52,938 bases of DNA, taken from NCBI RefSeq assembly GCF_004010195.1, contig NC_057718.1, forward strand, positions 70,645,741 through 70,698,678, given 5' to 3'. A program made the translations under genes and the position numbers. How positions within the stretch are numbered: the stretch's first letter is position 1; the number at the start of each line of letters is the position of its first letter. Origin of the DNA: Chiloscyllium plagiosum. Lineage: Eukaryota. The notes below the pieces were generated by a model. The model was given only the letters and a program-made list of their open reading frames with translations, made no database searches and had not been told where the DNA came from. This document shows, one piece after another, positions 3,091 through 49,700 of the stretch.

Positions 3091-3249
3091 TAGTAGGCTT
3101 TATGTGAGCATTTGGGAGCAGGCACAGCCAGAGTGAGGTTTGCACAAGTTAGTTTTCTTTTTGTTCATTCATGAGACAAGGGTTTCATTAATTTAGGTCA
3201 GCATTTATTGCCCATCCCTAATTCCCCAGAGGGCAGTTAAGAGTCAACT

Positions 3250-17419: not shown

Positions 17420-19112
17420 CCTCACCCCTCCAAACATTATAAATATAGGGTCCCCCTTTACTCACTTTCCACCCCACTAGCCTCCACATCAAACATATCA
17501 CCCTCAAACACTACCACCAACTTCAATTAGACCCCAGCACCAAGAACATCTTCCCCTCCCAACTCCTCCCTGCCTTCCACAAGGACCATTCCCTTTGCCA
17601 CTCCCTGGTTTGTGCCACACTCCCCACCAACATACCCCAATCCCCTGGTACCTACCCGTGTAAGTGAAAAAGATGCAACATCTGCCCGTACACCACTTCC
17701 CTCACCTCACAGAACATAGAACAGAACAACACAGTACAAGCCCTTCAGCCCTGGATGTTGTGCCAACCTTTTATCCTACTCTGAGATCAGACTAACCTAT
17801 ATACCTTTCATTGTACTATCTTCCATGTGGCTATCCGAGAGTTGCTTAAATGTCTGGTAAACCTTCATATATCAATCCGGCTATCCAAGGAATCAATCTG
17901 GTAAACCTTCATTTTCTTCACTCAGCGAGTCGTAAGTTCATGGAATGCCCTGCCAGCAGCAGTGGTGGACTCTCCCTCTTTATGGGCATTTAAGCGGGCA
18001 TTGGATAGGTATATGGAGGATAGTGGGTTAGGATAGGTTAGGCGGGCTTGGATCGGCGCAACATCGAGGGCCAAAGGGCCTGTACTGCGCTGTATTCTTC
18101 TATGTTCTATGTTCTATGTCCCTAATGTATCTAACGCTACTGCCATTGTTGGCATTGCATTCCATGCATCCACCATTTAAAGAATTTAAATGGTTTAAGG
18201 AACCTAACTCTGACATCTCTCCTGAACCTTCCTCCAATCACCTTAAAATTATGCCCCCTCATGATAGCCATTTCTGCCACGGGAAAAAAGTCTCTGGCTC
18301 TCAATCCAGGGCCCCAAACAGTCCTTCCAGCTGAGACAGAGGTTCACCTGCATCACCTCCAGCCTAGTCTACTGCATCCAGTGCTCCCAATGTGGTCTTC
18401 TCTACATCGGTGAGACCCAATGTAGATCGTTTTGCAGAGCATCCTCGCCAGGCCTGAAATGGCCAGCCTGACCTCCCAGTCACTGCCCATTTCTATTCCC
18501 CCTCCCATTCTACCTCCAACATGTCCATCCTCAGCTTCCTCCACTGCACAGTGAATCTAACCACAAATTGGAGGAACACACTTAATCTTCCACCTGGTCA
18601 GCCTAGAGCCTGGAGAACTTAAATTGAGTTCATGAGTATCAAACAATCTTCCCACCATCTCCCAGCTTCCTTTCCAGCCCTGTCTCCTCCCTTCCATTCC
18701 ACATCCTCACCCTTTCTTCCAGCTACCAACTGGATTCATCCCTCCCAACAACCTGAAGAAGGGCTTATGCCCGAAACGTCGATTCTCCTGTTCCCTGGAT
18801 GCTGCCTGACCTGCTGCACTTTTCCAGCAACACATTTTCAGCTCTGATCTCCAGCATCTGCAGACCTCACTTTCTCCTCCCAACAACCAACCAGGTCATA
18901 CCCCCTACTTGTGTTCACCTATCAGTACCTCACTATTCTGATACTCTCCCCAACTCCCACTTTGTCTGTAGCTCCTGTACCCCCACATCTAGTCCTGAAG
19001 AAAGGTTATACCCAAAACGTTGACATCTCCACCTCCTGATGCAGTCTGGCTTGCTGTGTTCTTCCAGCTCCTGCCTGTCTACTTTGGATTCCAACATCTG
19101 CAGTTTTTTGTC
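17420..19112 (+). mobile_element. Decayed Penelope-like (Neptune-type) element, interrupted by CR1 fragments at about 17711-18300
   Basis: Cys-rich linker (PC..KRCNIC) and GIY-YIG motif LVYCIQCSQCGLLYIGET...FAEH; the tail has a degenerate hammerhead at 18992-19024. Confidence 0.8.
18753..18875 (+). mobile_element. Short Penelope tail insertion starting at a hammerhead core
   Basis: ctgaaga-a-gggc ttat gccc-gaaacgtc followed by the same tail family as 48560; 13-bp TSD cctcccaacaacc (18741-18753 / 18876-18888). Confidence 0.8.
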
Positions 19113-19423
19113 TCTATCCCATACACTTAGACTGTGACCCCTGGTCTGGACTCTCTAGTATTCAGAATCATCCTTCTTGTGTTTGCCCTGTCCAGTTCTG
19201 TTAAAACTTTATAGGTTCCTGTAAGAACTACCCTTCATTCTTTTAAACTCCAGGGAATATAGTCCTAACTGATCTAATCTCTCTTCATATATCAATCCGG
19301 CTATCCAAGGAATCAATCTGGTAAACCTTCATTGCACTCCCCCCATAGTGCAATGGAAAGAAAACTGCTAACTGAAAATGTTTAAATGAAGGAATATCCT
19401 ATTATCATCAAGAAATGAATTAC

Positions 19424-19526
19424 CCTTAATATTTCATTAAAAACTGGATTCACCGAGTTCTTCTTCACTGTGCTCTTCAACTTACTCTGAGGTGATTTGT
19501 CAGGAAGCAAATAGGTCTTCACATAC
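19424..19526 (-). CDS. SYTL3: SYTL3 coding exon (C2A middle)
   Basis: Acceptor ctttgttttag|G, donor AGG|gtaatt, 103 nt. Completes the split CC|G Pro codon and reads [34 protein letters not shown]. Confidence 0.93.
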
Positions 19527-20084
19527 CTAAAACAAAGCTCAGAATCACAAAGATGTAGCTTCAACAACTACACAATGTTCTTTGTTCCAATTTTTGGATT
19601 TTATCATTAATTACATTATTTCAAGATAGTCAAGGTGGGGAAGGAATCAGTCCAGAGTAACTTGGTTTTAAAAACTATTGAAAACATTAGCAAAGGAGAG
19701 AAGTTACCACTAAACAAAAGGATGAGACAGAACTTGAGAAAGAATTTCAAACCTGAAAATCAAGACATAGAATCATTATGAGTACAGTGAAGAAATGGAC
19801 AAGGACAGAAAACACTTTTGGATGTTAGAGGTCCCAACAACAGTAGTTACATTGTTTGACAAAATAACAGGCCAGCAAATGTGAAGTGAGAAAAACTTTT
19901 ACACAGCAAATGGTTACAATATGCAGTGCACTGCTTGGAAGAGTGCTGGAATCAAAGATATGAGGGAAAGCAGGGCATTGGCAGGAGGTAGTGGTGCTCA
20001 TTTGAAGAGCTGGTGTCACCATTGTGGCCTGTGTCATGGAACAAAGGTGATATAATACTTAAAATGCACTTTATTCAGCCTACA

Positions 20085-21865
20085 GATTTGAGAAGACAAA
20101 CCAGTCTCGGTTTTAAAATATTTATGGAAATGAACAGGCCTGATCCACAAGGAAAATTTCTAAACTCGGGCAAATTCAATTGTAATGATATTAGACAGGA
20201 ACTTTAAAAAAAATGATTGGGGGAGAGGGATGTCTGGCAAGTGAGAGGTTTCCAAAAGTGAGATAACGAGAATTCAGGGCCATCATGTCCCTGTTAGTCT
20301 GAAAGGCAAGGCTGGCAGGAGTGCGAAACAGTGTATGACTAGAGACATTGAGGCTCTGGTCAAGAATAAGGAGGTATATGTCAGGTATGGACAGCTGGGA
20401 TCAAGTGAATCCCTTAAATTATACAAGTGTACACTTAAAAGGGAAATCAGAAGGGCAAAAAGGGGATGTGAAATAGCTTTGGCAGATAGGGTAAAGGAGA
20501 ATCCAAAGAGATTCTATAAGTATATTAAGGGCAAAACAGTAACTAGGGAGACAAAAGACCCCTCTTAAAAGATCAATAAGGTCGTCCATGTGTGGAGACC
20601 AGGAGATGGATGAAATTCTAAACATATGTTTCTTGTCAGTATTTACTGTGGAGAAAGACATAGAAGCTCAGGAACTCAGGGAAATAAATAATGAAAAGAG
20701 TCCACATGAAATAAAAGAAGGTGCTGGGAGTCTTAAGGATCTGATCAAATATATCCCAGGACACGATGGGAAGTTATGAAAGAAATTGCAGGGCCCTAGC
20801 AGAGACATCTGCAATATTGAAAGCTACGGGCAAGGTGCTGAAAGACTGGAGGGTGGCTATTGTTGTGCCATTATCTAAGAAAGTCTGCAAGGAAAAACCA
20901 GGTAACTCCAGACCAGTAGACTCACATCAGTGGTGGCTAAGTTATTGGTGGGGATTTTGAGATACAGAATCTGCATGCATTTGGAAAGACAAGGACTGGT
21001 TAGGGAGAGGGTCAGCATGGCTTTGTGCACAGGAAATTATGTCTCACAATTTGGATTGAGGTTTTTGAAGAGGTGACCAAGAAGATAGATGAAGACAGAG
21101 CAGTAGATTTTGTCTTCGTGGATTTTAGCAAGACCTTCAATAAGGTACTGCATGTTAGATTGATTAGTAAAGTTACATTTCATGGAATCCAGGGAGGGCT
21201 AGCCAATTGGATACAACATTGGTTTGATGATAGGAAACAGAGAGTGGAGGTAGGTGGTTTTGTTCAGACTGGAGGCCTGTGACCAGCTGCAAGGTTTGGT
21301 GCTGGATTGTCATTTATATAAACAGTTTGGATGAGAGTATAGGAGGAATGGTTAGTAACTGAATGGTTAGTAAGTTTGCACATGACACCAAAATTGGTGC
21401 TATAGTGGACAGTGAAGGAGGTTATCTAAGAGTACAAGGTGTCTTGATCAACTGGGCCAGTGACTGATGAATGGCAGGTGAAGTTTAATTCAAACAAATG
21501 AAAGATGTTGCATTTTGGTAAGACAAGCTAGTGCGGGACTTAAATAGTTAATGGTTGGGCCCGGGGTGTGTTCTTGAACAGATAGACCTAGGGATGCAGG
21601 TACATAGTTCTTTGAAAGTGGTGTCACAGGTAGACAGGGTGATGAAGATGGCATTTGGCATGTTTGCCTTCATCAGTCAGAGCACTGAGTAAAGCAGTTA
21701 GGCTGTCATATTACAGCTGTACAAGACATTGGTAAAGCCACATTTGGAGTACTACATATAATTCTGGTTGCCCTGCTATAGGAAGGATGTAATTAAACTG
21801 GAGAGGGTACAAAAAAGATGTACAAGGATATTACCAATACTGGAAGAATTGAGCTATAAGGAAAG
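20085..21865 (+). mobile_element. Decayed CR1 ORF2
   Basis: KENPKRFYKYIK and FVDFSKTFNKV; resumes at about 22938. Confidence 0.88.
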
Positions 21866-22937
21866 AACAAACAACAAAGAAAATTACAGCACAGGAACAG
21901 GCCCTTTGGCCCTCCATACCTGCACCGATCTAGATCTGCTATCTCCCCCTATATCATTGGTGCCTCTACGCACCACAAAAACTTTGCTGTTCACTCTTCC
22001 TCCCCTCAGAACGTCCTGCAGCCGATCTGAGACATCCCTGACCCGTGCACCTGAGAGGCAACATACCATTTGGGAGTTTCGTTTTTGACCACAGAACAGT
22101 TGAATCTCCTATGACTATAGCCCTTCCATTCTTTTTCCCACCTTCTATACAGCATGAACCTGGCTACTGCTGACTTCCCTGGTGAGCCACCTCCCTAAAC
22201 AGTTTCCAATACAAGTACACCTACTTTGGAGGGAGGTGACCACAGGGGACACATGGACTGCCTTCCTGCTCTTTCTCTGCATTTTGGTCACCCATTCCCT
22301 TTCTCCCTCAGCAATCCTAATCTGCGATCTGACCAATTCGCTAAACGTGCCACCCACGACCTCCTCAGCATCGTGGATGCTCCAAGGTGAGTCCATCTGC
22401 AGCTTTGGAGCCATCATACGGTCTAACAAGAGCTGCACTGAACACACTTGCTGTACGTGAAGGAGTCAGGGACATCAGCCACGTCCCTGAACTCCCACAT
22501 TGAGCAAAAGGAGCATAACACGGGTCTGGTATCTCCTGCCATTTTTACCCTTAAGCTTAACTTAGTCCAACTATAATAGCAAATAACAGATAAATGAAAT
22601 TTTTAAAAATTACTAATCACACCACTTACCAGCACACAATAAAAAAGAGAAAGACAAACCTTTCCTTATCAACATAACACAGTCTTTTTTTGGTTAGAGG
22701 AGATGGGCGGGTGAGAGGCACTACACATGTAGTGTGTTGGGTTTAGCCACTACCCAAATATATCAGTTCCCAGAGCGCAATTCGACCACTCTCACTCAGC
22801 TCCTCACTCTCACCGCTCCTGCTGCTGCTGCAAAATGGAGGATGCTGATTCCACGAGGTAAGTATTTAAATGGGAAATTTGCCTTCCCGGCAGCCCCTTG
22901 GTCCTCACTCTCACTGTTCCTACTGCTGCTGCACACT
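21866..22937 (-). mobile_element. Internally deleted CR1 (5'UTR plus partial ORF1 fused to the 3' tail)
   Basis: ORF1 start atggcagga at 22542; esterase motif GTNDIG joined directly to the 3' terminus; TSD gaaag (21861-21865 / 22938-22942). Confidence 0.78.
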
Positions 22938-23019
22938 GAAAGGCTGGAACGACTTTCCCTAGAGCATAGGAGGCTGAGGCATAGACTTATTGGGGTGTAT
23001 AAAATCATTAGGGACATAG

Positions 23020-23960
23020 TTTCCCCATTGTAAAGGAGACCACATTGTGAGCAGTGAATGCAGTAGACTCGATTGTGAGAAGTGGAGGTAAAACACTGCT
23101 TCACAAGGAAGGTAAGTTTGGGCACTTGGATACTAAGGATGGATGAGGTAAATGAGCAAGTGTTACACCTTCAGCAATTGCAGGGGAAGATGCCGTGGGG
23201 CTGTGGAAGTGGGAGTGAAGAAAGTGTGTACCTGGATGTCCCAGAAGGAATGGTCCCTGAGGAAGGCAGACAAGGGGGGGACTATATGAGGTGATGGAAA
23301 TGGCTGCTAATGATTTTCTGCTTATGGATGCCGGTGGGATGGTAGGTAAAGACAAGGGGAACCCCTATTGCTGTTGTGAGAACGAAAAGAAAGGGTAAAG
23401 TCCAAAGTGCGCAAGATACATCGGATGTGGTTGAGGGCCATGTCAACAATGGTGCTGAGGAATCCTCAGTTGAGAAAGAGGGTGGATATTTCAGAGGCTC
23501 CCTTGTCAAAGTTGGTATAATCAGAACATATGCAACAGAAACGGAAGAACTGGGAGAAAGGAACAGAAACTTTACAGGAAGCAGGATGTATAGTTCAGGA
23601 AATTGTGGGAGTTGGTGGGATTATAGTGAGTATTAGTGGCCAGTATATCCCCAGAAATAGAAACAGAGGAGTCAAGGAAGGGAAGAGAAGAGTCAGAGAT
23701 GGATCAGGTGAAAGCAAGCCAGGGTGGAAATTAGAAGCAAAATCGATAAACATTTCCAATTCTAGATGAGAGAGGGAAGCAGCACACATGCTATTTTTGA
23801 CATACTGGAGAAAGAGTTGTGGGTGCGGGCTGGAATAGGACTGGAACAAGAAATGTTCCAGGTATCCCATAAAGAGGCAGGCATAACTAGGATCCACCTG
23901 TGTTCCCATGACCATTCCTCTGACCTGAAGAAAATGAGAGGAGTTAAAAGTGTTCTCGTT
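23020..23960 (-). mobile_element. Decayed Penelope-like element (RT C-terminus to GIY-YIG)
   Basis: FNSSHFLQVRGMVMGTQVDPSYACLFMG and VYCIHCSQCGLLYNGET in the ORF track. Confidence 0.85.
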
Positions 23961-24326
23961 TATGATGAGGACAGCTGCATGCTTACTTTCAGCGACTGGC
24001 ACACAAGGATACCCAAGTCTTGACCCCTTTCTCAATCTATCACCATTCATTTAATAATCTGCCTTCCTGTTTTTGCTACCAAAGTGGATAACTTCACGTT
24101 TATCGAAATTATAATTAATCTGCCATGTATTTGCCCATTCACTTAACTTATCCAAATGACACTGACGCATAGTTGTACAACATAAAAACAGGCTCGTCGG
24201 CCCACTGTGGAAGTAACTGCCAACACTTATCCCATTTACTTGCTCTTGGTCTGAAGCCTACAATGACCTGGCATTTTAAGTACTCTTCCAAATGTTGCAA
24301 GAGTACCTGCTTCCTATATCATCTCA

Positions 24327-24530
24327 AGCAGACAGGCAGGAGGCTGCAAGAACACAGTATGTCAGACAGCATCAGGAGATGGAGAAGTTGACTTTTTGGA
24401 TGTAACTCTTCTTCAGGAAGAAGGGATACACCTGAAACATTGACTTCTCCACCTCCTGATGCTGCCTGGCTTGCTGTGTTCTTGCAGCCTCCTGCCTGTC
24501 TACTTTGTATTCCAGCATCTGCAGTTTTTT
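24327..24530. mobile_element. Penelope-derived hairpin element (older)
   Basis: Inverted arms centred on tcttcttcaggaagaag (about 24415); 19-bp TSD tgcttcctatatcatctca (24308-24326 / 24531-24549). Confidence 0.82.
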
Positions 24531-26642
24531 TGCTTCCTATATCATCTCAGGCAGCATGTTTAATACTTCAACCATGCTCTGGGTGAAAAAGTTCTTTGTC
24601 AGATCTCCTCTAAACTACTTACTCCTCACCTTAATTTATACTCTCTGGCCTTTGACACATCTGCCATGGGGAAAAGATTCTCACAATCTACTCCACGCCT
24701 CTCATAATTCTGTATACCTCAGTCAGATTGCCCTTCAGCCTCCTCTGCTGCAAGGAAAATAAACACAACCCATCCATTCTCTCCTTATAACAAATTTCTT
24801 AACCCAAGTAACATCCTGGTGAATCTTCTCAGTACCCACTCCAGTGCAATCACATCTTTTGAATAGTGTGGTAACCAGGATTGAACACAGTATTCCATAT
24901 GTGGCCTAACCAAAGTTTTATAAATTTGTGAAAAGACTTTCTATTTCTACATTCTATGCCCGGCTAATGAAGGCAATCATCCTGTATGCTTTCTTCACTA
25001 TCCTGTCCATACAGACTGACACCTTCAGGGATCTATGTATTTCCCTACCAATGTCCCTTTGTTCCTCAGTGCTCCCTGAGGGCCTATCATTCATTGTATG
25101 TGCCCTTCTCTTATTAGAACTACCAAAATGCATCACCTTGCACTTATCAGGATCATCATTTGCCATTGTACCGTCCAATTTACCAGATGATGAATATCAG
25201 ACTGAAGCCTGAGACCATTTACCTCACTATCAACACCATCAATTTTCATGTCAGCTGCAAATTTACTATTATACCTTCTATGTTCACATCCAAGTTGCTA
25301 ATGTAAACAATAAACAACACCGAACCTTGTAGTACACTGCTTGCCACAGGCTTCCAATTGCAAAAATCAACTTTCCACCATCACTTTTTGTCTCCTGTTT
25401 GAATGCAGTTTGCCAAATTGCCTTGGATCCCATAGACTCTGGATCAGCCTTCCATGTGGGAACTTGTTAAAGGCTTGAATGAAATCCACGTAAACCACAT
25501 CACCTGCACTACTCTCATTAATGTATTTAGTCACCTTTTCAAAAAAAAACACAGACAGTTTCTCCCTTTAATAAATATCTTTAAACAATGTCTGCCTTTC
25601 CAAATATTGTTTAATCCTATCCTTCAATTATTTCCCAATAATTTCTCCACCACTAAGTTCCAACTAAGTGATCTGTAATTACCTAGCCTATCCCTGTTGC
25701 CCTTCTTGAATAAAGGAACCCTCTTATCTATCCTTCTGGCAATTTACCTGTGACAAGCGAGGTTACAACTACTCCCATCAGAGGCCCAGCAATCTCCATC
25801 CTTGCTCCTATTGCAGCCTGGGATAAATCTTATCAGGCTCTGGGGATTTGTGCACCTGTATGCCCATTAAAACATTTATTAATCTAGGACCTTACTATCC
25901 AAACTGAAATTCTCAGCTACAATGTCTTTCTCGTCTGTGAATACAACTGAGAGGTATTTATTTAATATCTCACCCACATCCACTGACTCCAAGCAAAGGT
26001 TGGAGCCTTTGATCTCAAATAGATCCCATCCTTTCCTTGGCAATCTTCTCTTCATTAACTCATAATAAGTCTTAGGTTGTGGCCCCTCTTTGACATCATA
26101 GTTTTCTTCTTAGGAAATCTCCAACTCTCTCTATACTTTTGAAAGGCTTCCTCTGTTTTTAATGTACTGTACCTGACATGTGTTTCTTTCTTTTTCTTTA
26201 TCAAACTCAGATATCCCTTGACATCCATGCTTTCCTGGACTTGTGCCCCTGCCTTTCACTCAGCCCTGAATTATCACTGTACTACTTTTAAAAGAGTCCC
26301 ATTTTCTAAATGTAGCTACTCCCAATCTATGTTTGCCAGATCCTGTCAAATAATATTGAAATTGGCTTTACTGCAATTTAGACACTAAACTTGTGCACAA
26401 TCCTTATCCCTTTCTAGAGTGACTTTGAAACTTACAGAGCTTTGGTCACTATCCTCAAAATGCTCACCACTGAAACTTAAACCACTTGAGGGCTTTGTTC
26501 TGCAGGAGTAGGTTTAATGCTGCCCTATCTCTTGTAGAACTACCTACATACTGGCACAAAAATTCTCCTGTATACAATTTTAAAATTCCACTTCATCTGA
26601 TCAATTCACACTAAAGATATCCCAGTTACATTAGTAAAGTTT

Positions 26643-29730: not shown

Positions 29731-29920
29731 TCGCTATTACCCCCCTGCCAACTTGCATCCACCTATCACCTTCCCAGCTATGTTGCCTCCAGCTCCACCC
29801 TATACCCCTATTTATCTCTCAGCCCCCTTCCCCCTCCACCTTTCTGATGAAGGGCTTATGCCAGAAACATAGACTCTCCTGCTCCTCAGGTGCTACCTGA
29901 CCTGTGCTTTTCCAGTGCCA
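29731..29920 (+). mobile_element. Penelope-like tail with degenerate hammerhead core
   Basis: ctgatga-agggcttatgcca-gaaacata at 29844-29871 plus the shared tail. Confidence 0.7.
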
Positions 29921-29924
29921 TAGT

Positions 29925-30975
29925 TTTTGAATATAGAAAAGTGTGAAATTATGCACATTGGTAGGAAGAATAGACGGGTAGAATATTTTCTAAATGAGGA
30001 ACGGCTTCAGAAATCTGAAGCACAAAGCAACTTGGGCATCCTAGTTCAGGATTCTCTTAAAGTGCAGGTTCAGTTGACATTTCAGGCGGCAAATGCAGTG
30101 TTACCATTGAGGGCTAGGGCACAAGAGCAGAAATGTATTGCTAATGCTTCATTAGGCTCTTTTCAGACAGCATTCGAAATATTGTAGAGTAGACAGTCAG
30201 AAACTTTTTCCCCGGGTGCAACAGAGTGTTACAAGGGGACATAAATTTAAGGTGAAGGGTGGAAGGTATAGGGGAGATGTCAGGGGTGGGTTCTTTACCC
30301 AGAAAGTGGTGGGGGCGTGGAATGCGCTGCCCGTGGGAGTGGTAGAGTCCGAATCTTTGGTTACCTTTAAGCGGCAATTGGATAGGTACATGTATGGGTG
30401 CTTAAGCTAGGACAAATGTTCGGCACAACATCGTGGGCCGAAGGGCCTGTTCTGTGCTGTATTGTTCTATGTTCTATGTTCTATGTTCTAAGGGCCTGTT
30501 TCCTCACTGCAGGGAATCTAATGTAATCTGACTCAAGGGACTGTGTTATAGGGAGAAGTTTGACAAGCTAGGACTTTTTCTTTAGAAGGTAGAAGACTGA
30601 GGGGGGTCTTTTAGAAGTGTATAAGATCATGAGAGGTATGGATAGGATGAATGCACTCAGTCTTTTTCCCAGGAATCAAGGACCAGAGGCCATTAATTTA
30701 AGTTTGGAGGAGAAAGAATAAATGGAAACCTGAGGGGCAATGCTTTTACACAGAGGGTGGTAAACATATGGAATGAGCTGCCATCAGAAGTGATTGAGGT
30801 AGGTATATTAACAACATTTAAAATGCAGTTGGACAACTACACGGGTAGGAAAGGTTTAGAAGGATATGGGTCAAGTGCAGGGAAATGGGGTTAGCGTGGA
30901 TGGATATTTTGGTTGGAATGGAGCAGTCTCAGCGTAAGGGCCTATCTTCATGCTGTCGGACACTATAACTCTATG
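29925..30975 (+). mobile_element. Cluster of CR1 3' fragments and a SINE tail
   Basis: FFTQKVVGAWNALP, (TTCTATG)n tail at about 30465-30490, then a second 3' fragment. Confidence 0.85.
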
Positions 30976-32999: not shown

Positions 33000-33620
33000 A
33001 CAGATTTCTCCCTTTACCCATTCTGGATGCTATACTTTGGGAAAGACATGATGACATTAGACAGAGTTAGAAATGATTTAGGAGAATGGTTCCAGGGATG
33101 AGATACTTCAACTTACCTGGATAGATTGAAGAATTTAGGATGTTTTCCTTGGAGAAGAGAGGTTTGATAAAGTATTCAAAATCATGTAGAGCCTGAAGAG
33201 AGGAGATAGGGAGAAACTCTTCCCGCTCATGAAAGGATCATGAATGAGAGGGCACAGATTTAAAGAAACTGCAACAATCGCAATGGCATTATAAAGAAAA
33301 ACCTTTTTATGCTGCAAATGATTAAGGTATGACAAACACTTGCTAGTGTGGTGCAAGCTGCTTCAATTGAAACATTCAAAAAGGAATTAGTTAACTGAAA
33401 AAGGACTACACAGGGAAGACGGGAAAATAGTAATAGATGAATTGCTTATTTGGACAGCTAGGAGAAAGTGAGGACTGCAGATGCTGGAAATCAGAGCTTA
33501 AAAATGTGTTGCTGGAAAAGCGCAGCAGGTCAGGCAGCATCAAAGGAGCAAGAGAATCGACAATTTGGACAGCTGGCAAGATTTGACGGGCTGAATGTCT
33601 GTCTGCATTGTGATAATGAT
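33000..33620 (+). mobile_element. Old CR1 3' fragment
   Basis: Similarity to the RT C-terminus (aggagaatggttccagggatgag...ttggagaagagagg). Confidence 0.7.
33461..33561 (-). mobile_element. Short Penelope tail insertion
   Basis: Same tail family as 18753 and 48560; 12-bp TSD atttggacagct (33448-33459 / 33563-33574). Confidence 0.8.
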
Positions 33621-34760: not shown

Positions 34761-35042
34761 AGTTCTAGCTTGTCCAACCTCTTCACTATAACTCAGACCT
34801 CAAGTCCTGGCAACTTCCTTGTAAATTTCTTCTGCACTCCTTCCAGTTCAATAACATCCTTCCTATAGCAAGGTGACAAACATTTCTTGACATTCAGGGT
34901 TAGTTCTAGCTTGTCCAACCTCTTCACTATAATCAGACCCTCAAGTCCTGGCAACTTCCTTGTAAATTTCTTCTGCACTCCTTCCAGTTCAGTAACATCC
35001 TTCCTATAGCAAGGTGACAAACATTTCTTGACATTCAGGGTT
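34761..35042 (+). repeat. 141-bp tandem duplication
   Basis: 34761-34901 vs 34902-35042; few differences. Confidence 0.93.
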
Positions 35043-36711: not shown

Positions 36712-36973
36712 CTAGGCTCTTCTTAGCTCTCTCTTTGGGTCTTTTCTGGCTAACTTGTAACTCTCAAGCCCTCTAACTGAGCCTTCAAGCCTCATCCTCA
36801 CATAAGCCTTCTTCTTTCTAAGTTTGTGCGAAGATTTGTAGCCTAGGCTCTTCTTAGCTCTCTCTTTGGATCTTTTCTGGCTAACTTGTAACTCTCAAGC
36901 CCTCTAACTGAGCCTTCAAGCCTCATCCTCACATAAGCCTTCTTCTTTCTAAGTTTGTGCGAAGATTTGTAGC
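36712..36973 (+). repeat. 131-bp tandem duplication
   Basis: 36712-36842 vs 36843-36973; one substitution seen. Confidence 0.93.
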
Positions 36974-37340
36974 TTGGGTGCTCGTTGTTGTGGTTCTGTT
37001 CGCCGAGCTGGAAGTTTTTCTTGCAAACGTTTCGTCCCCTGGCTAGGCGACATCATCAGTGCTTGGGAGCCTCCTGCGAAGCGCTTCTTTGATGTTTCCT
37101 CCGGTGTTTATAGTGGTCTGTCCCTGCCGCTTCCGGTTGTCAGTTTCAGCTGTCCGCTGTAGTGGTTGGTATATTGGGTCCAGGTCGATGTGTTTGTTGA
37201 TGGAGTTTGTGGATGAATGCCATGCCTCTAGGAATTCCCTGGCTGTTCTCTGTCTGGCTTGCCCTATGATAGTAGTGTTGTCCCAGGAAAATTCATGTTG
37301 CTTGTTGTCTGCTTGTGTGGCTACTAAGGATAGCTGGTCA
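36951..37340 (-). mobile_element. Penelope-like element 3' end (GIY-YIG C-terminus plus pseudo-LTR)
   Basis: Minus translation DQLSLVATQADNKQHEFSWDNTTIIGQARQRTAREFLEAWHSSTNSINKHIDLDPIYQPL, typical of the end of a PLE GIY-YIG domain. Confidence 0.85.
37023..37062 (-). ncRNA. Putative minimal type I hammerhead ribozyme
   Basis: GCA-CUGAUGA-U-GUC...GAC-GAAAC-GUU-UGC: full core, stem I GCA/UGC, stem II, palindromic ACGU stem III. Confidence 0.72.
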
Positions 37341-37342
37341 TG

Positions 37343-37997
37343 CTAAATTACCCATAGTGCCCAGGGATGTGCAGGTTAGGGTGTATTGGTGATCCTAAAT
37401 TACCCATAGTGCCCAGGGATGTGCAGGTTAGGGTGTATTGGTGATCCTAAATTACCCATAGTGCCCAGGGATGTGCAGGTTAGGGTGTATTGGTGATCCT
37501 AAATTACCCATAGTGCCCAGGGATGTGCAGGTTAGGGTGTATTGGTGATCCTAAATTACCCATAGTGCCCAGGGATGTGCAGGTTAGGGTGTATTGGTGA
37601 TCCTAAATTACCCATAGTGCCCAGGGATGTGCAGGTTAGGGTGTATTGGTGATCCTAAATTACCCATAGTGCCCAGGGATGTGCAGGTTAGGGTGTATTG
37701 GTGATCCTAAATTACCCATAGTGCCCAGGGATGTGCAGGTTAGGGTGTATTGGTGATCCTAAATTACCCATAGTGCCCAGGGATGTGCAGGTTAGGGTGT
37801 ATTGGTGATCCTAAATTACCCATAGTGCCCAGGGATGTGCAGGTTAGGGTGTATTGGTGATCCTAAATTACCCATAGTGCCCAGGGATGTGCAGGTTAGG
37901 GTGTATTGGTGATCCTAAATTACCCATAGTGCCCAGGGATGTGCAGGTTAGGGTGTATTGGTGATCCTAAATTACCCATAGTGCCCAGGGATGTGCA
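37343..37997 (+). repeat. 52-bp tandem array, at least 12.6 apparently identical copies, running into a gap
   Basis: Unit ctaaattacccatagtgcccagggatgtgcaggttagggtgtattggtgatc, resembling the internal/3' segment of the HE1-like SINE. Confidence 0.95.
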
Positions 37998-38856
37998 NNN
38001 NNNNNNNNNNNNNNNNNNNNNNNNNNNNNNNNNNNNNNNNNNNNNNNNNNNNNNNNNNNNNNNNNNNNNNNNNNNNNNNNNNNNNNNNNNNNNNNNNNNN
38101 NNNNNNNNNNNNNNNNNNNNNNNNNNNNNNNNNNNNNNNNNNNNNNNNNNNNNNNNNNNNNNNNNNNNNNNNNNNNNNNNNNNNNNNNNNNNNNNNNNNN
38201 NNNNNNNNNNNNNNNNNNNNNNNNNNNNNNNNNNNNNNNNNNNNNNNNNNNNNNNNNNNNNNNNNNNNNNNNNNNNNNNNNNNNNNNNNNNNNNNNNNNN
38301 NNNNNNNNNNNNNNNNNNNNNNNNNNNNNNNNNNNNNNNNNNNNNNNNNNNNNNNNNNNNNNNNNNNNNNNNNNNNNNNNNNNNNNNNNNNNNNNNNNNN
38401 NNNNNNNNNNNNNNNNNNNNNNNNNNNNNNNNNNNNNNNNNNNNNNNNNNNNNNNNNNNNNNNNNNNNNNNNNNNNNNNNNNNNNNNNNNNNNNNNNNNN
38501 NNNNNNNNNNNNNNNNNNNNNNNNNNNNNNNNNNNNNNNNNNNNNNNNNNNNNNNNNNNNNNNNNNNNNNNNNNNNNNNNNNNNNNNNNNNNNNNNNNNN
38601 NNNNNNNNNNNNNNNNNNNNNNNNNNNNNNNNNNNNNNNNNNNNNNNNNNNNNNNNNNNNNNNNNNNNNNNNNNNNNNNNNNNNNNNNNNNNNNNNNNNN
38701 NNNNNNNNNNNNNNNNNNNNNNNNNNNNNNNNNNNNNNNNNNNNNNNNNNNNNNNNNNNNNNNNNNNNNNNNNNNNNNNNNNNNNNNNNNNNNNNNNNNN
38801 NNNNNNNNNNNNNNNNNNNNNNNNNNNNNNNNNNNNNNNNNNNNNNNNNNNNNNNN

Positions 38857-39037
38857 GGCCATTACAGCGGACAGCTGAAACTGACAACTGGAAGCGGCAG
38901 GGACAGGCCACTATAAATGCCGGAGGAAACACCACAGAAGCGCTTCACAGGAGGCTCCCAAGCACTGAGGATGTCACCTAGACAGGGGACGAAACGTTTG
39001 CAACAAAAACTTCCAGCTCGGCGAACAGAACCACAAC
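38857..39037 (+). mobile_element. Inverted copy of the same Penelope-like pseudo-LTR
   Basis: Reverse complement of about 36985-37165 with a few substitutions, followed by the TSD ttcttctttct. Confidence 0.85.
38962..39001 (+). ncRNA. Putative minimal type I hammerhead ribozyme
   Basis: GCA-CUGAGGA-U-GUCACCUAGACAGGGGAC-GAAAC-GUU-UGC. Confidence 0.7.
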
Positions 39038-41269: not shown

Positions 41270-41600
41270 AGAATCCATTTACCAGTCAAGGAAAGGCTGC
41301 CAGCATTCTCAAAGATCCATCCCACCCTAGCAATGTTTTTCTACAAACTTGACCATTGGGCAGAAGGTACAGAAGCTTGAAAACATGCACCAGCTGGTTT
41401 CGATACACTTTCTACCCTACTGTTGTTAGAATACTGAATGGACTCACAAACTCTTAACATTCGCCTGTACCTGTGTTTTTATTTTTGCCACTGTTTACCT
41501 ATTGTTTACTTATCTGTGCTACTTAACTCTGTGATTTGCCTGTATTTTTTCGCTGTGCCTCAGTACACGTGAAATTAAATTCAATCCAATTCAATTCAAT
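41270..41600 (+). mobile_element. Rex1/Babar-like LINE 3' end
   Basis: GRRYRSLKTCTSWFRYTFYPTVVRILN-like C-terminus and a (TTCAA)n tail. Confidence 0.65.
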
Positions 41601-42990
41601 GTGGTACTGGAAATAATTGGGAAATTGCAATCACAGCAGTCTTCCTCTTCATTTTACTACCTGTCTAAATTCGAACTGCAGGATCTAATTTCTTTTTTTA
41701 ATCCATGTCATTAGCACCAACATATACCATGACTGCTGGGTGTAGACCCTCCCCCTTCAGAAAGTTTGGTAGCTGCTCTGAGACATTCCCAATCATAGCA
41801 CCAGGGATGTTGACACTTATTGACAGTTCTGGGAAAGTTGGGGTTTAGGAACCCTCCATAGTAACAATCCTAAAGAGCACCCACCTATCCAAAAAGGATC
41901 CCTAAGGCAACCCCCTATCTGCCCGAGAAGCACATTTTCAGGGGTATCACGGATCTCCAAAGCCTTATAGCTAGTTAAAAGAAGTGCACTGAGGTCAGAC
42001 CTGTTTTACCTAGTCTAATCCACACAGTCTAGGTTTCAGACCAAGAGAGACTCCAAAATCTGATTTTAGTGGATGCAGCTCATCCGTTAAATGGTCAAGT
42101 GTCTCCATCAAATGCACATGCATAAATTATGGATTATCCCCAATCCTGCTCTCATGAAAATTAGAAATGCCAGGTTTCAGGGCATCACTTAGACCTCGTA
42201 ACACTTTACCACCATATTTGTTATGACAGACAGGGTTTCTATCACATTGAAAACCTGGGCCTTAATATTTCATATCCATCATAAACGTAGACCTCTCTTT
42301 TCTTTCTCTACTATTTGTCTGCCTCTGCAATTGTTTTAAATTTGATATGTCTCAACTTTTCTCAGTTCATGGAAAAGTCAGTATCAACTCTCTTTATCTT
42401 TCCACAGACGATGGTCAATCTAAATACAAGCAGCAATTTCTGTTTTTATTCTAGGTTTTTGGCATATTTATGATTTTCTATTTGCTACTGATAGTATTAA
42501 GCCAGCCATAATGACAATGCCATCTTAGATCAACAATTCCATGTTGGAACTGGAGAGGGAAAACAAAATAAATTGACTCGTGGTGGTAGGATCTATTGCA
42601 TGGAGGTTTCATTGATATGCTATTAAAAAGATACAAAGAGAAGGAATATTTCTACATAATACTCAGAAAATGCACTGGATACTGAGAAAACTATGAGGCC
42701 TGGCAATGTTATGGTGATAGTATTGAAGTTTGTACTCCAAAAGTAGCCACATGCCTAGTCAAGAACAGTTACAGAGCACTGAGGAAAAATAGCCAGCTAT
42801 GACTTGCCTACAAAGAACAAAATAAATTCGATCTGGCCATTTACTTCCATATTAACCAACTCAATTGACAGTGTTATCAGCATCACTTGGACAGCAATAA
42901 CATGCACGTAATGCTCAGTTTGTGCTTTGCCAGAGCTCCTGTCTTCATTAGACACTTGATCCAAATATGGACAAAAGAGTTGAATTAAGT

Positions 42991-43213
42991 CATGTTGTGC
43001 AGGGGCTGGTGTTGGACTAGGGTGGGCAAAGTCAGAAGTCACACGACACCAGGTTATAATCCATTGGATTTATTTCAGATCACACAAGCTTTTGGAGCTC
43101 AACTCCTTTCATTGCACTGCATCTGATGAAAGGGCTGCACTCCGAAAGCTTGTGCAATTTCAATTAAACTTGCTAGGCTTTAACTTGTTGTCGTGTGACT
43201 TCTGACTTTGTCC
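42991..43213. mobile_element. Penelope-derived hairpin element (degenerate; related to 44870-45076)
   Basis: Inverted arms caaagtcagaagtcacacgaca / tgtcgtgtgacttctgactttg; core ctgatga...ccgaaagctt at 43123-43151. Confidence 0.75.
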
Positions 43214-43249
43214 GCCTGAGGGAAGTGAGAGTGAGTGCCCTCGACATCG

Positions 43250-43893
43250 AATCATTGAATCTCAGCAGTGTGTCTACAGATTATTTGGCCCATGAAATCC
43301 ATACCGACCATCCAAAGAGCATCCTACCCAGACCCAGTCTGCTGCTCTATCCCTGTAACCCTACATTCCCCAAGGCTAATCCTCCTAGCCTCCACATCAT
43401 TGGACAATATGGGCAATTTAGAATGGCCAAGCCATGTAACCTGCACATCTTTGGACTCTGGGAGGAAACCGGAGCATCAGAGGAAACCCAGCAGACTCAG
43501 GGAGAATGTGCAAACTCCACACTGACAGTCACTGAAGTCTGGAATCAAACCCATCCCCTAACCCTGTGAGACAGCAATGCTGATTAAATTACTTACAGTG
43601 TGGAAACAGGCCCTTCGGCCCAACAAGTCCACACCGACCCGCCGAAGCGCAACCCACCCAGACCCATTCCCCTACATTTACCCCTGCACTTCACACTACG
43701 GGCAATTTAGCATGGAAAATTCACCTGACCTGCACATCTTTGAAATGTGGGAGGAAACCGGAGCACCCGGAGGAAACCCACGCAGACACGGGGAGAATGT
43801 GCAAGTTCCACACAGTCAGTCGCCTGAGGCAGGAATTGAACCCGGGTCTCTGGCGCTGTGAGGCAACAGTACTAACCACTGTGCCATTGTGTT
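43250..43893 (-). mobile_element. Two adjacent HE1-like SINEs (about 43250-43582 and 43583-43893)
   Basis: Two successive family bodies. Confidence 0.85.
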
Positions 43894-44869
43894 GCTCTGA
43901 CATCAAGGAATACTAGCAGAATTGTAGTCAACAGGAGTTATAGGGGAAATTCTCTAATGGGTGGAGTTGTGCCTAGCACAAGAAAAGATAGCTGTGATTG
44001 TTGGAGGGGCATTATCTTAGAGACAGGACACTGCTGCAGAAATTCATCAAGGTAGCATCCTATACTAAAAGCCCAACCAACTTCAGCAGTTTCAACAATG
44101 ACCTTCCTGCCTTCAGCCAATGGAAGACAACATTCAGCACCCTTTGTGATTCCTTCAATACCAAACCAGTCCATGTCCATATGCAGCATGATGTGGGCAA
44201 CATTCAGGGTTGGACTGATAAATGGTAACTGACAATAAGGCCATACAAGTGCCAGGCATTGGCCATGTCAAACAAGGGAGAACTTAACTATATCCCCTTG
44301 CAATTCAATGTCATTATGATCAATGAATCTACTATCAACATTCTGGGGATTGTCACTGATCACCATATAAATGCTGTTAAACTAGGTTTTTGGCTGGAAT
44401 TTTAGAGGCATGTAACTCACTCCTTACTCCTCAAAGCCTCAGTACTATTGTTATAAAGTCAAAAGAGTGTATGATCACTTTAAGACAGAAAACACTTTTC
44501 TGAGCTGAATGATTCACGTGTATCATGTCTAGCTAACAGGCACAGAGAGAGCAGAATTGATAATATGTAACAGTCAGCTTGGGATTGTGTTTTAATGTTA
44601 AGGCAACCTGATTTTAATTTAACCAATTAATTTAAATTATGTCCAGGATACTAAAACCCAATTGAATGTGAATTTATTGTATTGACAACATCGGACCAAT
44701 GAGAGGATACGATGTTGGTAGTATAGAAAGGTAAAGCATTTTGAAAAGAGTCAGAACTAATTGCCCATTGAACCAGAGAGCATCTGAAAGGGGTTTTCAA
44801 AACTCTTAAGGCAACATCTATTAAAGGTACCAAGAAATTTTACACAAAGACACTAACAATAAAAAGTAA

Positions 44870-45076
44870 TCATGATTCGGAGATGCCAGTGTTGGACTGG
44901 GGTATACAAAGTTAAAAATCACACAACACCAGGTTATAGTCCAACAGGTTTAATTAGAAGCACACTAGCTTTCGGAGCGACGCTCCTTCATCACCTGATG
45001 AAGGAGCGTCGCTCCGAAAGCTAGTGTGCTTCCAATTAAACCTGTTGGACTATAACCTGGTGTTGTGTGATTTTTA
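44870..45076. mobile_element. Penelope-derived hairpin element
   Basis: Near-perfect inverted arms of about 80 bp centred at about 44994; 12-bp TSD aataaaaagtaa (44858-44869 / 45077-45088). Confidence 0.85.
44992..45026 (+). ncRNA. Putative minimal type I hammerhead ribozyme
   Basis: CAC-CUGAUGA-A-GGAGC guc GCUCC-GAAAG-CUA-GUG: stem I CAC/GUG, palindromic AGCU stem III. Confidence 0.7.
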
Positions 45077-46072
45077 AATAAAAAGTAAGATGACCCAGGG
45101 AGAAGACAGCAGAATCGGAAGGATGGAAGGAAGCAACAGATTCAGAAGACTGGAAGGAAGACAACATAAGAGGCTGTATGGACTTTGAAAGATTAAGTTG
45201 ATTTAATGTTTAATAATTGTGTTATTAGAGCAGCACTATTATAGAGTGGGGCCAGAAAGTGATGTAGTTCAGAAGAACAGGAGCTTGGATCTATTTGTTA
45301 ATAGATTTTGTTTAGTGTTCACGATTAGAGTTAGGAAAATAAATTGTTATTTCTTTTCTTTAAACAGTGGCAATCAGGGATTTTCTTTCACTCACTCACA
45401 CGTTTAGCAGATTACAAAGTGATGCAAGCTTTTATGGGGTGTTAGTTTTAATTAGCAAAAGGGTTTGACTTCTGCATCACAACACTACCTATAAGGCACA
45501 AATGAAGACGTGCATTGGAATACTTCCCTCATGGCTGGATTAGGACAGCTCCAATATCCTCCAAGAAGCTTGGCACAAGCCAAAACAATGCAGCCAGCTG
45601 ATTGTCTCCCCCATTCTCTACTTTTAACATTTACTCCTTCTATCATAGGTGCACCAATAGAAGCACTGACTCAAGGGAATTTAGAGACACGCAACAAACA
45701 GTGGCCTAGCCAGAGATGCTTGAATGCCATGAAATAACAAAAAAAAATTAAGCCCACGAAGACTGCTTATTTTCTAAACAAGACCCTGAAGCTTCCATTG
45801 ATATTAGTGTAAATATAGAAAAATAGAGACTAGGAGCGGGAGGTGGGGAGCAAGTCATTCAACTTTTCAAGCCTCCTCTGCCGTTCAATATGATCATGGC
45901 TGATCCTCTTTCTCAATGCCATATTCCATTTTTTTCTCCATACCCTTGAATGCTTTTGGCCTTCAAAGTCTTCTATGGTAGACAATTCCACATGTTTCTT
46001 ACCAGTGGAGTGAAGTTGAACATTTTCCTCATCTCAGTCCTAAATGGTTACCCCATATCCTGAGACTGTGTA

Positions 46073-46764
46073 CAGTCTGTTCTGCTACAATAGCGGGTAG
46101 TTGTGTTCTTGTGTGATAGGAAATTGTGCAATAGAAATAACGGGGCTTATGGGAAAAATAGGGTTACGGATGAACCAACAAAAGTATCAGTAAAAGCCAA
46201 ATCAAAATTAACAGTTAGCCTAACACAAATGATAGCACGGTCTAAGGAAATGGTAAAATCATATATTTAAATGGAATAATACAATAAATTTAACACTTTA
46301 AGGGGTTTCTGAGTTTGCTGAATTACAGTAATGAATGAAGACGTGGGCTGAGGGTCATCAACAGCATCATTACTTTCAGGTGCAGTTCTGGGTGCAGGGT
46401 TATGACGAAAGAAATTACTTAGTCCAGAAATGGATGGCCGTATTTCATTGTCCTCAGGCTGTTTCTTTGGGGTTGGCTTAAAAAAGGCACCTCGTTTTTG
46501 ATGCTTTGCCATCTTTCTTCTTTCATGAAGAAGCTGTTCATAGGGTACCAGATAAGACTTTATGCCACAAACTGCTGTCCTGCTGCATTCTGCATTGTAG
46601 TCATTGCCTTCTAAGAGCTGCAACTGCTTCTCAACTTCCCTCAGGATAGAAGACAAAAAGGAAGTGGAATGTTCTCATGGTGCTGCATCCTGGACTTCAT
46701 CGCCTTCAGCTCGAGCTTCAATTTCCCCCACAACAACAAGCTGTTGTAGATCAGACTCCACTTA
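46073..46764 (-). mobile_element. Tigger/pogo-like DNA transposon 3' fragment
   Basis: Begins TA|CAGTCTGTTCTGC (TA target plus CAGT terminus). Minus ORF 46267-46656 (...LVPYEQLLHERRKMAKHQKRGAFFKP) resembles a Tigger transposase C-terminus. It is interrupted by CR1 and the other TIR is not seen. Confidence 0.65.
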
Positions 46765-49700
46765 GAGTCATAGAGTCATAGAGCACAGAAACAGACCTTT
46801 TGGTCAACCCGTCCATGCCGACCAGATATCCTAAACCAATCTAGTCCTACCTGACAGCATCCAGCCCACATCCCTCCAAACCTTTCCTATTCATATACCC
46901 ATCCAGATGCCTTTTAAATGTTGCAATTGCACAAGCCTCCACCACATCCTCTGGCAGCTCATTCCATACACGTACCACCCTCTGCATGAAAAAGTTGCCC
47001 CTTAGGTCTCTTTTATATCTTTCCCCTCTCAACCTAAACCTATGCCCTCTAATTCTGGACTCCCCCACCCCAGGGAAGAAGACTTTGTCTATTTAACATA
47101 CTCATGCCCCTCATGATTTTATAAATCACTGTAAGGTCAACCTCAGACATCCCATGGAAAACAGCCCCAGCCTGTTTAGCCTCTCCTTTAGCTCAAATCC
47201 TCCAACCCTGGCAACATCCTTGTAAATCTTTTCTGTACCCTTTCAAGTTTCACAACATCCTTCTGATAGGAAAAAGACCAGAATTGCGCACAATATTCCA
47301 ACAGTGGCCTAACCAATGTCCTGTACAGCCGCAACATGACCTCCCAACTCCTATACTCAATACTCTGACCAATAAAAGAATGCATACCAAACACCTTCTT
47401 CACTATCCTATCTACCTGCAACTCCACTTTCAAGGAGCTATAAACCTGCACTCCAAGGTCTATTTGTTCAGCAACACTCCCTAGGACCTTACCATCAAGT
47501 CCTGCTAAAATTTGTTTCCCAAAATGCAGCACCTCAGATTTATCTAAATTAAACTCCATCTGCCACTTCTCGGCCCATTGGCCCGTCTGATCAAGATCCC
47601 ATTGTAATCTGAGGTAACATTCTTTGCTGTCCACTACACCTCCAATTTTGCTCACCCTTTCTAGCCCTCTGATTATCTTATATGTCTCAATTAAGTCACC
47701 TCTCAACCTTCTTCTCTCTAACAAAAATGAGCTCAAGTTCCTCAGCCTTTCCTCATAAGACTTTCCCTCCATACCAGGCAACATCCGAGGAAAACTCCTC
47801 TGAACCCTTTCCAAAATTTCCACATTCTTCATATAATGCGGTGACCAGAATTATATGCAATACTCCAAGTGCAGCCGCACCAGAGTTTTGGAGCACTGCA
47901 ACATGACCTCATGGGTCCAAAACTCAAACCTTCTACAAATAAAGGCTAACACACCTTATGCCTTCTTAACTACCTTATCAACCTGGGTGGCAACTTTCAG
48001 GGATTTATGGACATGAACACCGAGATCTCTCTGCTCATCTACACTACCAGGAATCTTACCACTAGCCCAGCGCTCTTTATTCCTGTTGCTCCGTCCGAAG
48101 TGAATCATCTCACACTTTTCCACATCAAATTCCATTTGCTACCTCTCTGCCCAGCTCTGCAGCTTATCTATGCCCCTCTGTGACCTGCGACATCCTTTGG
48201 CATTATCCACAACTCCACCAACCTTAGTCTCATCTGCAAATTTCCCAATAACTCATCTGTCTACGTCCTCATCCAGGTCATTTATAAAAATGACATACAG
48301 CAGTGGTTCTAAAACAGATCCTTGCAGTACACCACTAGTAACTGAACTCCAGGATAAGCATTTCCCATCAACCACCATCCTCTGTCTTCTTTCAGTTAGC
48401 TAATTTCTGATCCAAACCACTAAATTACCCTCAATCCAATGCCTCCATATTTTGTGCAATAGCCTACCATGGGGAACCATATCAAATGTCTTACTGAAAT
48501 CCATACAAACCACATCAACCAGTTTACCCTCATCTACCTGTTTGGTCACCTTCTCAAAGGAGAAAGTGAGGTCTGCAGATGCTGGAGATCAAAGTTGAAA
48601 CTTTATTGCTGGAACAGCACAGCAGGTCAGGCAGCATCCAGGGTACAGGAGATTTGACGTTTCGGGCACAGGCCCTTCTTCAGGAAGAAGGGCCTGTGCC
48701 CGAAACGTCGAATCTCCTGTACCCTGGATGCTGCCTGACCTGCTGTGCTGTTCCAGCAATAAAGTTTCAACCACCTTCTCAAAGAACTCAATAAGGTTTG
48801 TGAGGCACGACCTACCCTTCACAAAACCGTGTTGACTATCCCTAATCAACCTATTCCTTTTTTGATGATTATAAATCCTATCACTTATAACCTTTTCCAA
48901 CACTTTACCCACAACCGAGGTAAGGCTCACTGGGTTTTCTCTACTCCCCTTCTTGAACAAGGGTACACCATTTGCTATCCTCCAGTCTTCTTGCACTATT
49001 CCTGTAGACAATGACGACATAAGGATCAAAGCCAAAGGCTCTGCAATCTTCTCCTTAATCTTACTCTAGTCATTCTTTTATTTCTGACATACCTATAGAA
49101 GGTTTTAGGGTTTTATTGATCCTATCTGCCAATGACTTGTCATGTCCCCTCTTGTCCTTCTTCGCGCTCTCTATAGGTCTTTCCTGGCTAACTGGTAACT
49201 CTCAAGCCCCCTAACTGAGCCTTCACATTTCATCCTAACATAAGCCTTCTTCTTCCTCTTGACAAGAGATTTAGCTTCTTTAGTAAACCACGGGTCCTTA
49301 GCTCAACCACTTCCTCCCTGCCTTACAGGTACATACTTATCAAGGATACGCAGAAGCTGTTCCTTGAATAAGCTCCACATTTCAATTGTGCACATTCCCT
49401 GCAGTTTCTTTCCCCATCCTATGCGTCCTAAATCTTGTCTACTCGCATCATAATTGCATTTCCCCAGCTATAACTCTTGCCCTGTGGTATATACCTAGCC
49501 CTTTCCATCGCTAAAGTAAACACAACCAAATTGTGGTCACAACCTCAAATCTAACACCTGGCTGGGTTCATTACACACTACCAAATCCAATGTGGCCTCA
49601 CCCCTTGTTGTCTATCTACATACTGTGTCAGAAAACCCTCCTGCACATATTGGACAAAAACTGATCCATCTAAAGTACTCGAATGATAGTATTTCCAGTC

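Follow-up and report, generated by a model that had tools for sequence, protein, structure and literature searches.

Short Penelope-like end pieces in a Chiloscyllium plagiosum window and the partial clustering of their 5' ends at the hammerhead core

Penelope-like end pieces in the window

The 52,938-nt stretch of Chiloscyllium plagiosum DNA analysed here (contig NC_057718.1), referred to as the window, contains short end pieces, or stubs, of Penelope-like elements (PLEs), several of which begin at the CUGANGA core of a minimal hammerhead motif. Positions are those of the whole window, and within the elements the C of the core is +1. Fourteen PLE arms were collected by profile search. They belong to three families (eight arms in A, four in B and two in C) and make nine insertions; the four hairpins among these derive from two families and four subfamilies (A2, A4, B1 and B2). 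The arms are listed below with an endonuclease (EN) remnant and with their target-site duplications (TSDs).

18340-18465, plus strand: decayed GIY-YIG EN remnant of an old Neptune-type PLE, translation VYCIQCSQCGLLYIGET (motif assigned by likeness)
18752-18878, plus strand: solo family-A1 end piece, from -1..+2 to +125; 13-bp TSD at 18741-18753 and 18876-18888
18889-19109, plus strand: old family-A2 copy with 3' untranslated region, core at 18995 and tail; extends upstream of the core and is host to the 18753 insertion
24327-24530, both strands: family-A2 head-to-head pair; minus arm -2 to +90 (whole core, untailed), plus arm +3 to +116 (tailed); 19-bp TSD
29731-29930, plus strand: family-A3 copy, core at 29844, 3' end at about +87, untailed; likely extends upstream to an N gap
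33461-33561, minus strand: solo family-A end piece from +26, including the GUC that precedes the predicted cut; 12-bp TSD
36951-37339, minus strand: family-C (Penelope/Poseidon-type) arm with EN C-terminus, core at 37059 and tail to +109
38859-39037, plus strand: second family-C arm, core at 38965, end at +73, at least 106 nt upstream to an N gap; 12-bp TSD in common with the 36951 arm
42991-43216, both strands: family-B2 head-to-head pair; plus arm about -5 to +94 (whole core, untailed), minus arm +4 to +125 (tailed); TSD not found
44870-45077, both strands: family-B1 head-to-head pair; plus arm -3 to +83 (whole core, untailed), minus arm +2 to +125 (tailed); 12-bp TSD
48559-48771, both strands: family-A4 head-to-head pair; minus arm -3 to +125 (whole core and tail), plus arm +3 to +90; 13-bp TSD

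All five window pairs consist of an inverted 5'-truncated copy with a one-sided tail, one arm being tailed (end at +109..+125) and the other untailed (end at +73..+94), with tails of 26-42 nt. The hairpin arms have two fixed 3' end positions, roughly 35 nt from each other: about +83..+94 and +116..+126. TSDs were found in six of the seven insertions tested (13, 19, 12, 12, 12 and 13 bp); a preliminary description of this DNA had given a range of 12-19 bp, which holds for these six, and none was found at 43118. The two family-C arms are one insertion, as indicated by their common TSD and the continuity of the host long interspersed nuclear element (LINE), and an assembly gap lies between them. 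The arms of the 48682 hairpin differ from each other at 1 of 88 nt and from the 18753 copy at 11-12 of 88 nt, indicating that both came from one source. No head-to-tail tandem units are present in the window, and reads with head-to-tail joints number just 18-29 in the read comparisons X21, X23 and X24. The stubs are separately made end pieces of PLEs, an ordinary, described kind of element.

All three families bear a minimal type I hammerhead motif made up of CUGANGA, a bulged base, stem II, GAAA, ACGU or AGCU, a predicted cut and a 3-5-bp stem I. Judged by sequence, the intact copies are candidate minimal hammerhead ribozymes (min-HHRs) with CUGANGA, GAAA, stem II, palindromic stem III, stem I and NUH. 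Stem II is paired in every family, as the preliminary description had it; stem III, which it called always palindromic, reads ACGT or AGCT where the copy is intact and has decayed in at least 3 of the 14 arms (29844, 24417 and the minus arm at 24416). Monomer folds are weak (z from -0.9 to +1.7 in five of the six stretches folded), an Rfam search gave no hammerhead match at E<=1, and CTGANGA is not enriched in the window (36 observed, 34 expected; 9 of the 36 in PLE ends). The hairpin at 44940-45050 was rejected as a microRNA, all Rfam microRNA-family matches lying below the gathering score and being taken as shape matches.

A GIY-YIG endonuclease upstream of the terminal repeat, which marks EN-bearing PLEs, is seen as the motif at 18340-18420 for family A and as an EN C-terminus for family C; none was seen for family B, and a Pfam search with the two EN fragments gave no match. 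On the basis of motifs we take family A to be of the Neptune type with GIY-YIG and family C to have a Penelope/Poseidon-type EN. EN-bearing PLEs encode a telomerase-like reverse transcriptase in the same reading frame; the stubs retain no intact copy of it. The A2 copy at 18889-19109 is presumably continuous with the remnant at 18340-18465. In family C an ATG inside the core starts a reading frame that runs through the tail. On the minus strand at 23029-23900 lies the decayed end of a second Neptune-type open reading frame (ORF), which shares the C-x2-C GIY-YIG motif and is broken off before the terminal repeat.

Positions of the 5' ends

The hairpin axes lie at 24415.5, 43118.5, 44994.5 and 48682.5, and the arms start at -2/+3, about -5/+4, -3/+2 and -3/+3, respectively. 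The solo at 18753 starts at -1..+2, its TSD overlapping the core start, and the solo at 33461-33561 starts at +26, 3 nt 5' of the predicted cut, with the GUC retained and outside the TSD. These six locations had been named in the preliminary description, including the end of the 33461-33561 copy near the predicted GUC cleavage site, and they were borne out. In total, five of the nine insertions start within 6 nt of the core, one starts just before the predicted cut and three run at least 100 nt upstream. Compared with a uniform null, five of nine starts within ±6 nt give p values of 2.5e-4 (ends spread over 170 nt) or 5e-5 (240 nt), the core having been picked as landmark post hoc and the window preselected. 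A uniform spread of breakpoints, one of the refutations that the preliminary description had itself proposed, is rejected. Its claim of clustering at the core across families holds for five events from two families; the three of nine that run upstream had been left out, and the family-C stem II (GUC/GAC) had been cited in support although the family-C pair at 36951-39037 is a counter-example. The clustering of 5' ends at the front edge of the core is real but partial, and the claim is partly confirmed.

The arms of the family-C pair extend at least 280 and at least 106 nt upstream of the core. For the 29844 copy an upstream extension of at least 100 nt is likely, on a weak alignment that 16 of 500 shuffles equalled; an earlier score for this copy was derived from N runs and was set aside. 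In three of the four window hairpins the untailed arm carries the whole core. Where the upstream sequence is known (A2 from 18995, the A1 read consensus, and TGCA in B2), the junctions fall on 2-4-nt quasi-palindromes. A 2-nt-spacer centre is common to two subfamilies. YYANWYY is the initiator consensus, and an initiator-like match with its A at -4 is present in A2 and the A1 read consensus, with a background of 1.4% per site, and missing in family C and the A3 copy.

For a wider view, one contig set and the raw reads from two organisms were aligned to 18290-19130 at 80% likeness; the organisms are probably related and therefore not independent. The depth on the A1 tail is about 110,000 per 1,934 Mb read, compared with about 1,500 at most on the EN remnant, a ratio that is an upper bound because the remnant is old; in organism B the tail depth is 81,000 per 1,874 Mb. 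Between +33 and +66 the depth hardly changes (ratio 0.94-0.95 in X21 and X23, 0.88 in X24). At -1, 43,916, 43,443 and 29,084 reads leave the reference, and about 0.83 of the core-covering arms reach -1 in X21 and X23 when scaled to the fixed 3' end; the ratio of 0.97 at the edge in X24 is inflated, being calibrated on just the two 3' rows listed. The reads leaving at 18752 agree upstream at 0.52-0.58 (a soft measure, on which an in-element alignment break also scores 0.57), compared with 0.33-0.37 for random flanks, which indicates that the leaving reads do not all stop at the core. A stop of all reads at -1 is ruled out, as it would give an agreement of 0.30, whereas in simple models 60-75% stopping at -4..-10 gives 0.50-0.59, which fits, and a constant end rate of 0.03 gives 0.69. 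Contig joints enter at 18752 in 6 among 12 of 437 rows; in four of the six the added letters end in ATT, and in none do they go beyond the CATT of the upstream consensus. Joint letters ATT and CATT correspond to starts at -4/-5. Three observations were discarded as evidence: the rise in depth at the A2 core (from about 66 to 1,900-4,700 in X21), since the reference is old and the upstream sequence varies among subfamilies; the joint rows at 18752 as proof of a peak, which pool every arm reaching the reference edge; and the joint rows at 18819/18842, which lie on alignment breaks. In the A2 tail at 19032-19068, reads with a 37-nt step back and 12 extra letters (133 and 162 in organism A, 24 in organism B) are a subfamily with a local duplication.

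An outside sample was obtained by searching about 20,000 metagenome contigs with a min-HHR pattern requiring an intact core, which gave 117 loci; some are chance or bacterial, and most look like PLE ends by their stems and family structure. An inverted arm is present in 34 of the 117 loci and in 0 of 110 shuffles, and a GIY-YIG motif lies upstream in two loci (L025 and L065). In these pairs the later-starting arm begins at a median of +2 (range -93 to +55) and the earlier arm at a median of -40, deduced from the spacer. Both ends lie within -6..+7 in 4 of the 34 pairs, or 3 of 31 in a reduced set from which L128 (probably orthologous to L118), L036 (truncated at the contig end) and L079 (tail not covered) were removed. 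The end rates per nt, in zones chosen after the data were seen, are 0.004 (+60..+39), 0.009 (+38..+26), 0.006 (+25..+8) and 0.030 (+7..-6), followed further upstream by 0.024, 0.016, 0.012 and 0.010. Ends are thus scarce within the tail, where under-detection of short arms partly explains the low rate, rise about five-fold at the core and then trail off over a long distance. A two-arm fit conditioned on the core being intact is incompatible with an end rate that is constant (p 3e-5 to 6e-3); it replaced a test on the shorter arm alone, for which the null was wrong. In the outside pairs, ends set in at the core and extend far upstream instead of marking a single position.

Near-symmetric pairs make up 13 of the 34, compared with 23% by permutation (p 0.011), and paired 3' ends lie at +75..+94 in 25 of 34. 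Five outside pairs combine a TSD of at least 10 bp with a single whole core; this core is on the untailed arm in four of them (L059, L070, L074 and L107), L097 being the exception. Core-to-end distances of about +85-94 and +111-126 recur in unrelated outside families. The family-A tail pattern gave 0 matches in the metagenome contigs, and a looser version gave 23 in viral contigs, probably by chance.

Other repeats lie nearby. Between the family-C arms, at 37335-37997, a 52-bp unit with content like that of short interspersed nuclear elements (SINEs) is repeated 12.8 times at 99% identity and runs into the N gap; it is either captured filler or an assembly artefact. Two-copy tandem duplications at 34761-35042 and 36712-36973 (units of 141 and 131 bp, 97-99% identity), the latter covering the family-C tail end and flank, are probably assembly overlaps. 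From about 50800 to 52938 on the plus strand lies what we take, by eye, to be the 5' part of a CR1-like LINE, with ORF1 and the start of ORF2 apparently well preserved. A hairpin at 6089-6131 is a SINE-end microsatellite and was set aside.

Possible origin of the stubs

The reading that we favour, at roughly even odds (a probability of about 0.5), is that the stubs are abortive, separately made insertions of EN-bearing PLEs, and that 5' ends in families A and B collect at the core because the template RNA starts a few bases upstream and the reverse transcriptase (RT) runs off its end. As observed, the insertions carry their own 12-19-bp TSDs and their arms end at the two fixed 3' sites. By analogy with PAc, the Poseidon element of Anolis carolinensis, the RT-endonuclease would nick both target strands and start synthesis internally at two sites separated by roughly one tail length (PMC11167929); the two fixed arm ends match the two published priming sites. 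Priming in the upstream pseudo-long terminal repeat (pseudo-LTR), at the RNA 5' end, would leave only 90-130 nt to be copied and may account for the large excess of stubs. One cDNA would then give a solo, and two cDNAs from the two nicks of a staggered break a head-to-head pair, possibly joined by 2-4-nt quasi-palindromes or microhomology from stem I and the core (TC..GA, TTC..GAA, TGCA). Two primings followed by end joining allow the whole core on either arm and so fit the untailed arms with core. Long copies would derive from RNA starting further up or from priming in the downstream pseudo-LTR. Family-C RNA must start higher up, because the ATG in its core opens the frame through the tail, whereas in families A and B the positions -5..+1 could be the start of the RNA itself, the initiator-like match of A1 and A2 having its A at -4. 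Also in favour of this reading are the window ends at -5..+4 in five of nine events, the arms in reads that mostly reach -1, the joint letters, the near-symmetric outside pairs and the high depth on the tail. In Penelope of D. virilis an initiator (Inr)/downstream promoter element (DPE) promoter is reported in the pseudo-LTR, with the start 46 bp before a 75-bp intron (PMC2377424), and that intron ends at helix I (PMC4209133). Self-cleavage has no visible part in stub formation.

Several points weigh against run-off at an RNA start. The start itself is putative, as it is read from DNA and sequencing reads, and distance to the priming sites is collinear with position on the ribozyme in all families seen. 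The insertions at 18995 (after the GIY-YIG remnant), 29844 (likely) and 36951-39037 reach far upstream, and an agreement of 0.57 at the in-element break means that most copies could do so. In the outside pairs the core peak is only about two-fold over the upstream rate (p 0.026 with n=34, 0.084 with n=31), and with wider zones the core-zone excess has p values of 0.09-0.29. Three young outside families contribute 26 core-bearing copies, of which 2 end within 6 nt, 4 end at -12 to -22 and 20 run beyond -25 (3 of them cut by contig ends). The Inr-like motif is present at -4 in two of these three families without a pile-up, and they account for 14 of the 15 matches among 111 loci; it is not sufficient and may merely mirror stem I pairing.

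Loss of anchor is the alternative that survives best, and we regard it as possible though rather unlikely. Here the RT would keep its grip on the RNA while copying the last 90-125 nt, where the ORF start and the ribozyme lie, and then fall off faster, no RNA end being involved. The outside-pair end rate, which steps from 0.004-0.010 to 0.030 and then decays, would be expected, as would the equal distance from core to priming site in all families, and PAc is reported to require ORF +20 to +172 of its RNA and to have a ribozyme that folds only with protein (PMC11167929). In the window, however, the ends (-5..+4) are tighter than a rate of 0.03 per nt gives, and on the soft measure of read agreement a constant 0.03 predicts 0.69 against the 0.52-0.58 seen. 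More speculative, and unlikely as it stands, is a role of the hammerhead as a non-catalytic clasp at the RNA start: two RNAs bound to a dimeric RT-endonuclease would be paired via their palindromic stem III, the two nicks would be primed simultaneously, and both cDNAs would run to the ribozyme 5' edge and be joined head to head. If true, this would explain the retention of a poorly cleaving ribozyme and the inverted 5' copies as a PLE signature.

The preliminary description had attributed the ends to the ribozyme fold, with the folded hammerhead, as monomer or dimer, blocking the RT or making the cDNA snap back; this mechanism is mostly not supported, and we consider it unlikely. The ends do cluster at the motif, the self-complementary letters of stem I and core are used at junctions, and self-priming has been proposed for palindromic PLE junctions (PMC3846280). 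RT copies its RNA template 3' to 5', so a helix barrier should put ends at the 3' side (+26..+38), where there is no peak (0.009-0.010 per nt); ends on the far (5') side arise after the helices have been copied and count against a barrier. Folds are weak for the monomer, and tight hairpins also occur at -14 (L043) and -96 (L096). If a tail-primed cDNA snapped back, the loop would have to end up on the tailed arm, and an untailed arm with the whole core could not arise; the loop is on the untailed arm in seven of nine informative pairs.

Ascertainment is an improbable explanation. Homology visible only from the conserved core on, with copies chosen by the core, would mimic a pile-up through a bias toward short copies, and indeed three of nine events were missing from the preliminary description, an intact core was required outside, and short arms are under-detected. 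Hairpin axes and TSDs nevertheless fix the ends without a reference, and the core-conditioned fit still rejects a constant rate. Even less probable is the amplification of a few master hairpins as units, in the manner of miniature inverted-repeat transposable elements (MITEs) or SINEs. Two subfamilies share the 2-nt-spacer centre, and single junction rows of 57-105 reads would allow minor amplification. However, the spacer is oriented oppositely relative to the tail in 24415 and 48682, and the 34 outside junctions are all unlike except for one probable orthologue pair. Among strand-changing joints the top row holds 0.65-0.78% of edge reads and the nine top rows 2.2-2.4%, with 1,090 further rows; since no single fold-back junction exceeds 0.8%, no master MITE dominates, and the many copies with one fixed structure and junction that define such an element are not seen. 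The hairpins arise repeatedly, as had been proposed, and "MITE-like" is apt for their shape but not as a sign of amplification as a unit. MITEs are short class II elements of inverted-repeat shape with a TSD; the stubs differ in their unequal arms, heterogeneous junctions, TSDs of 12-19 bp, retroelement ends and absence of transposase termini. Palindromic PLE derivatives of crocodilians are known as 'Chompy'. Run-off from hammerhead-cut RNA is hardly credible, for although one solo (33461-33561) starts near the predicted cut, it keeps the GUC 5' of the cut, outside the TSD, core sequence absent from cut RNA is present in eight of nine events, and the main in vitro substrate is uncut RNA (PMC11167929).

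Relation to described elements and meaning

Insertion units of EN-bearing PLEs comprise a pseudo-LTR, an adjacent inverted 5'-truncated copy and a 30-40-bp tail at one end (PMC8557442, PMC3846280). The stubs resemble them in the head-to-head inverted arms, tail on one arm, similar TSD size and junction palindromes, and differ in that the unit is reduced to 200-230 bp, lacks an ORF, is very abundant and has its junction at the ribozyme front edge. The min-HHRs of metazoan PLEs are mostly solo, with some opposite-strand pairs 100-700 bp apart (PMC4209133), and share with the present motif CUGANGA, one bulged base, stem II, GAAA, palindromic stem III and a short stem I; in contrast to the proposal of cleavage and circular templates made there, the ends described here do not match the cut site. 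For PAc, two internal RT start sites bound the tail, both target strands are nicked and extended, a dimer is predicted and ribozyme cleavage is not needed (PMC11167929). Its ORF starts in the ribozyme, as in family C, and one start site lies about 120 nt from the core, whereas the PAc template, unlike the window stubs, includes 126-145 nt of sequence preceding the ORF (PMC11167929). An ATG at +7 of the core, like the PAc ORF start, is present in 57 of the 117 outside loci (L024-L140), a frequency that the search pattern partly imposes. Non-LTR retrozymes are likewise derived from PLE ends, non-coding and provided with a type I hammerhead, but form head-to-tail tandem arrays (bioRxiv 10.64898/2026.07.22.740005), whereas the stubs occur singly or in head-to-head pairs.

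Two features of the stubs have been described before: 5'-truncated copies in inverted orientation with the tail on one side only (PMC8557442, PMC3846280), and min-HHRs that are solo or lie on opposite strands (PMC4209133). A 5'-end bias at the ribozyme 5' edge was not found stated in the open-access literature, although subscription papers and supplements may hold such a statement. The stubs bear on the function of the PLE hammerhead and on the origin of the inverted ends of PLEs. Abundant and with arms bounded by RT start sites and the ribozyme front edge, they constitute a large natural data set for distinguishing between run-off, loss of anchor and snap-back.

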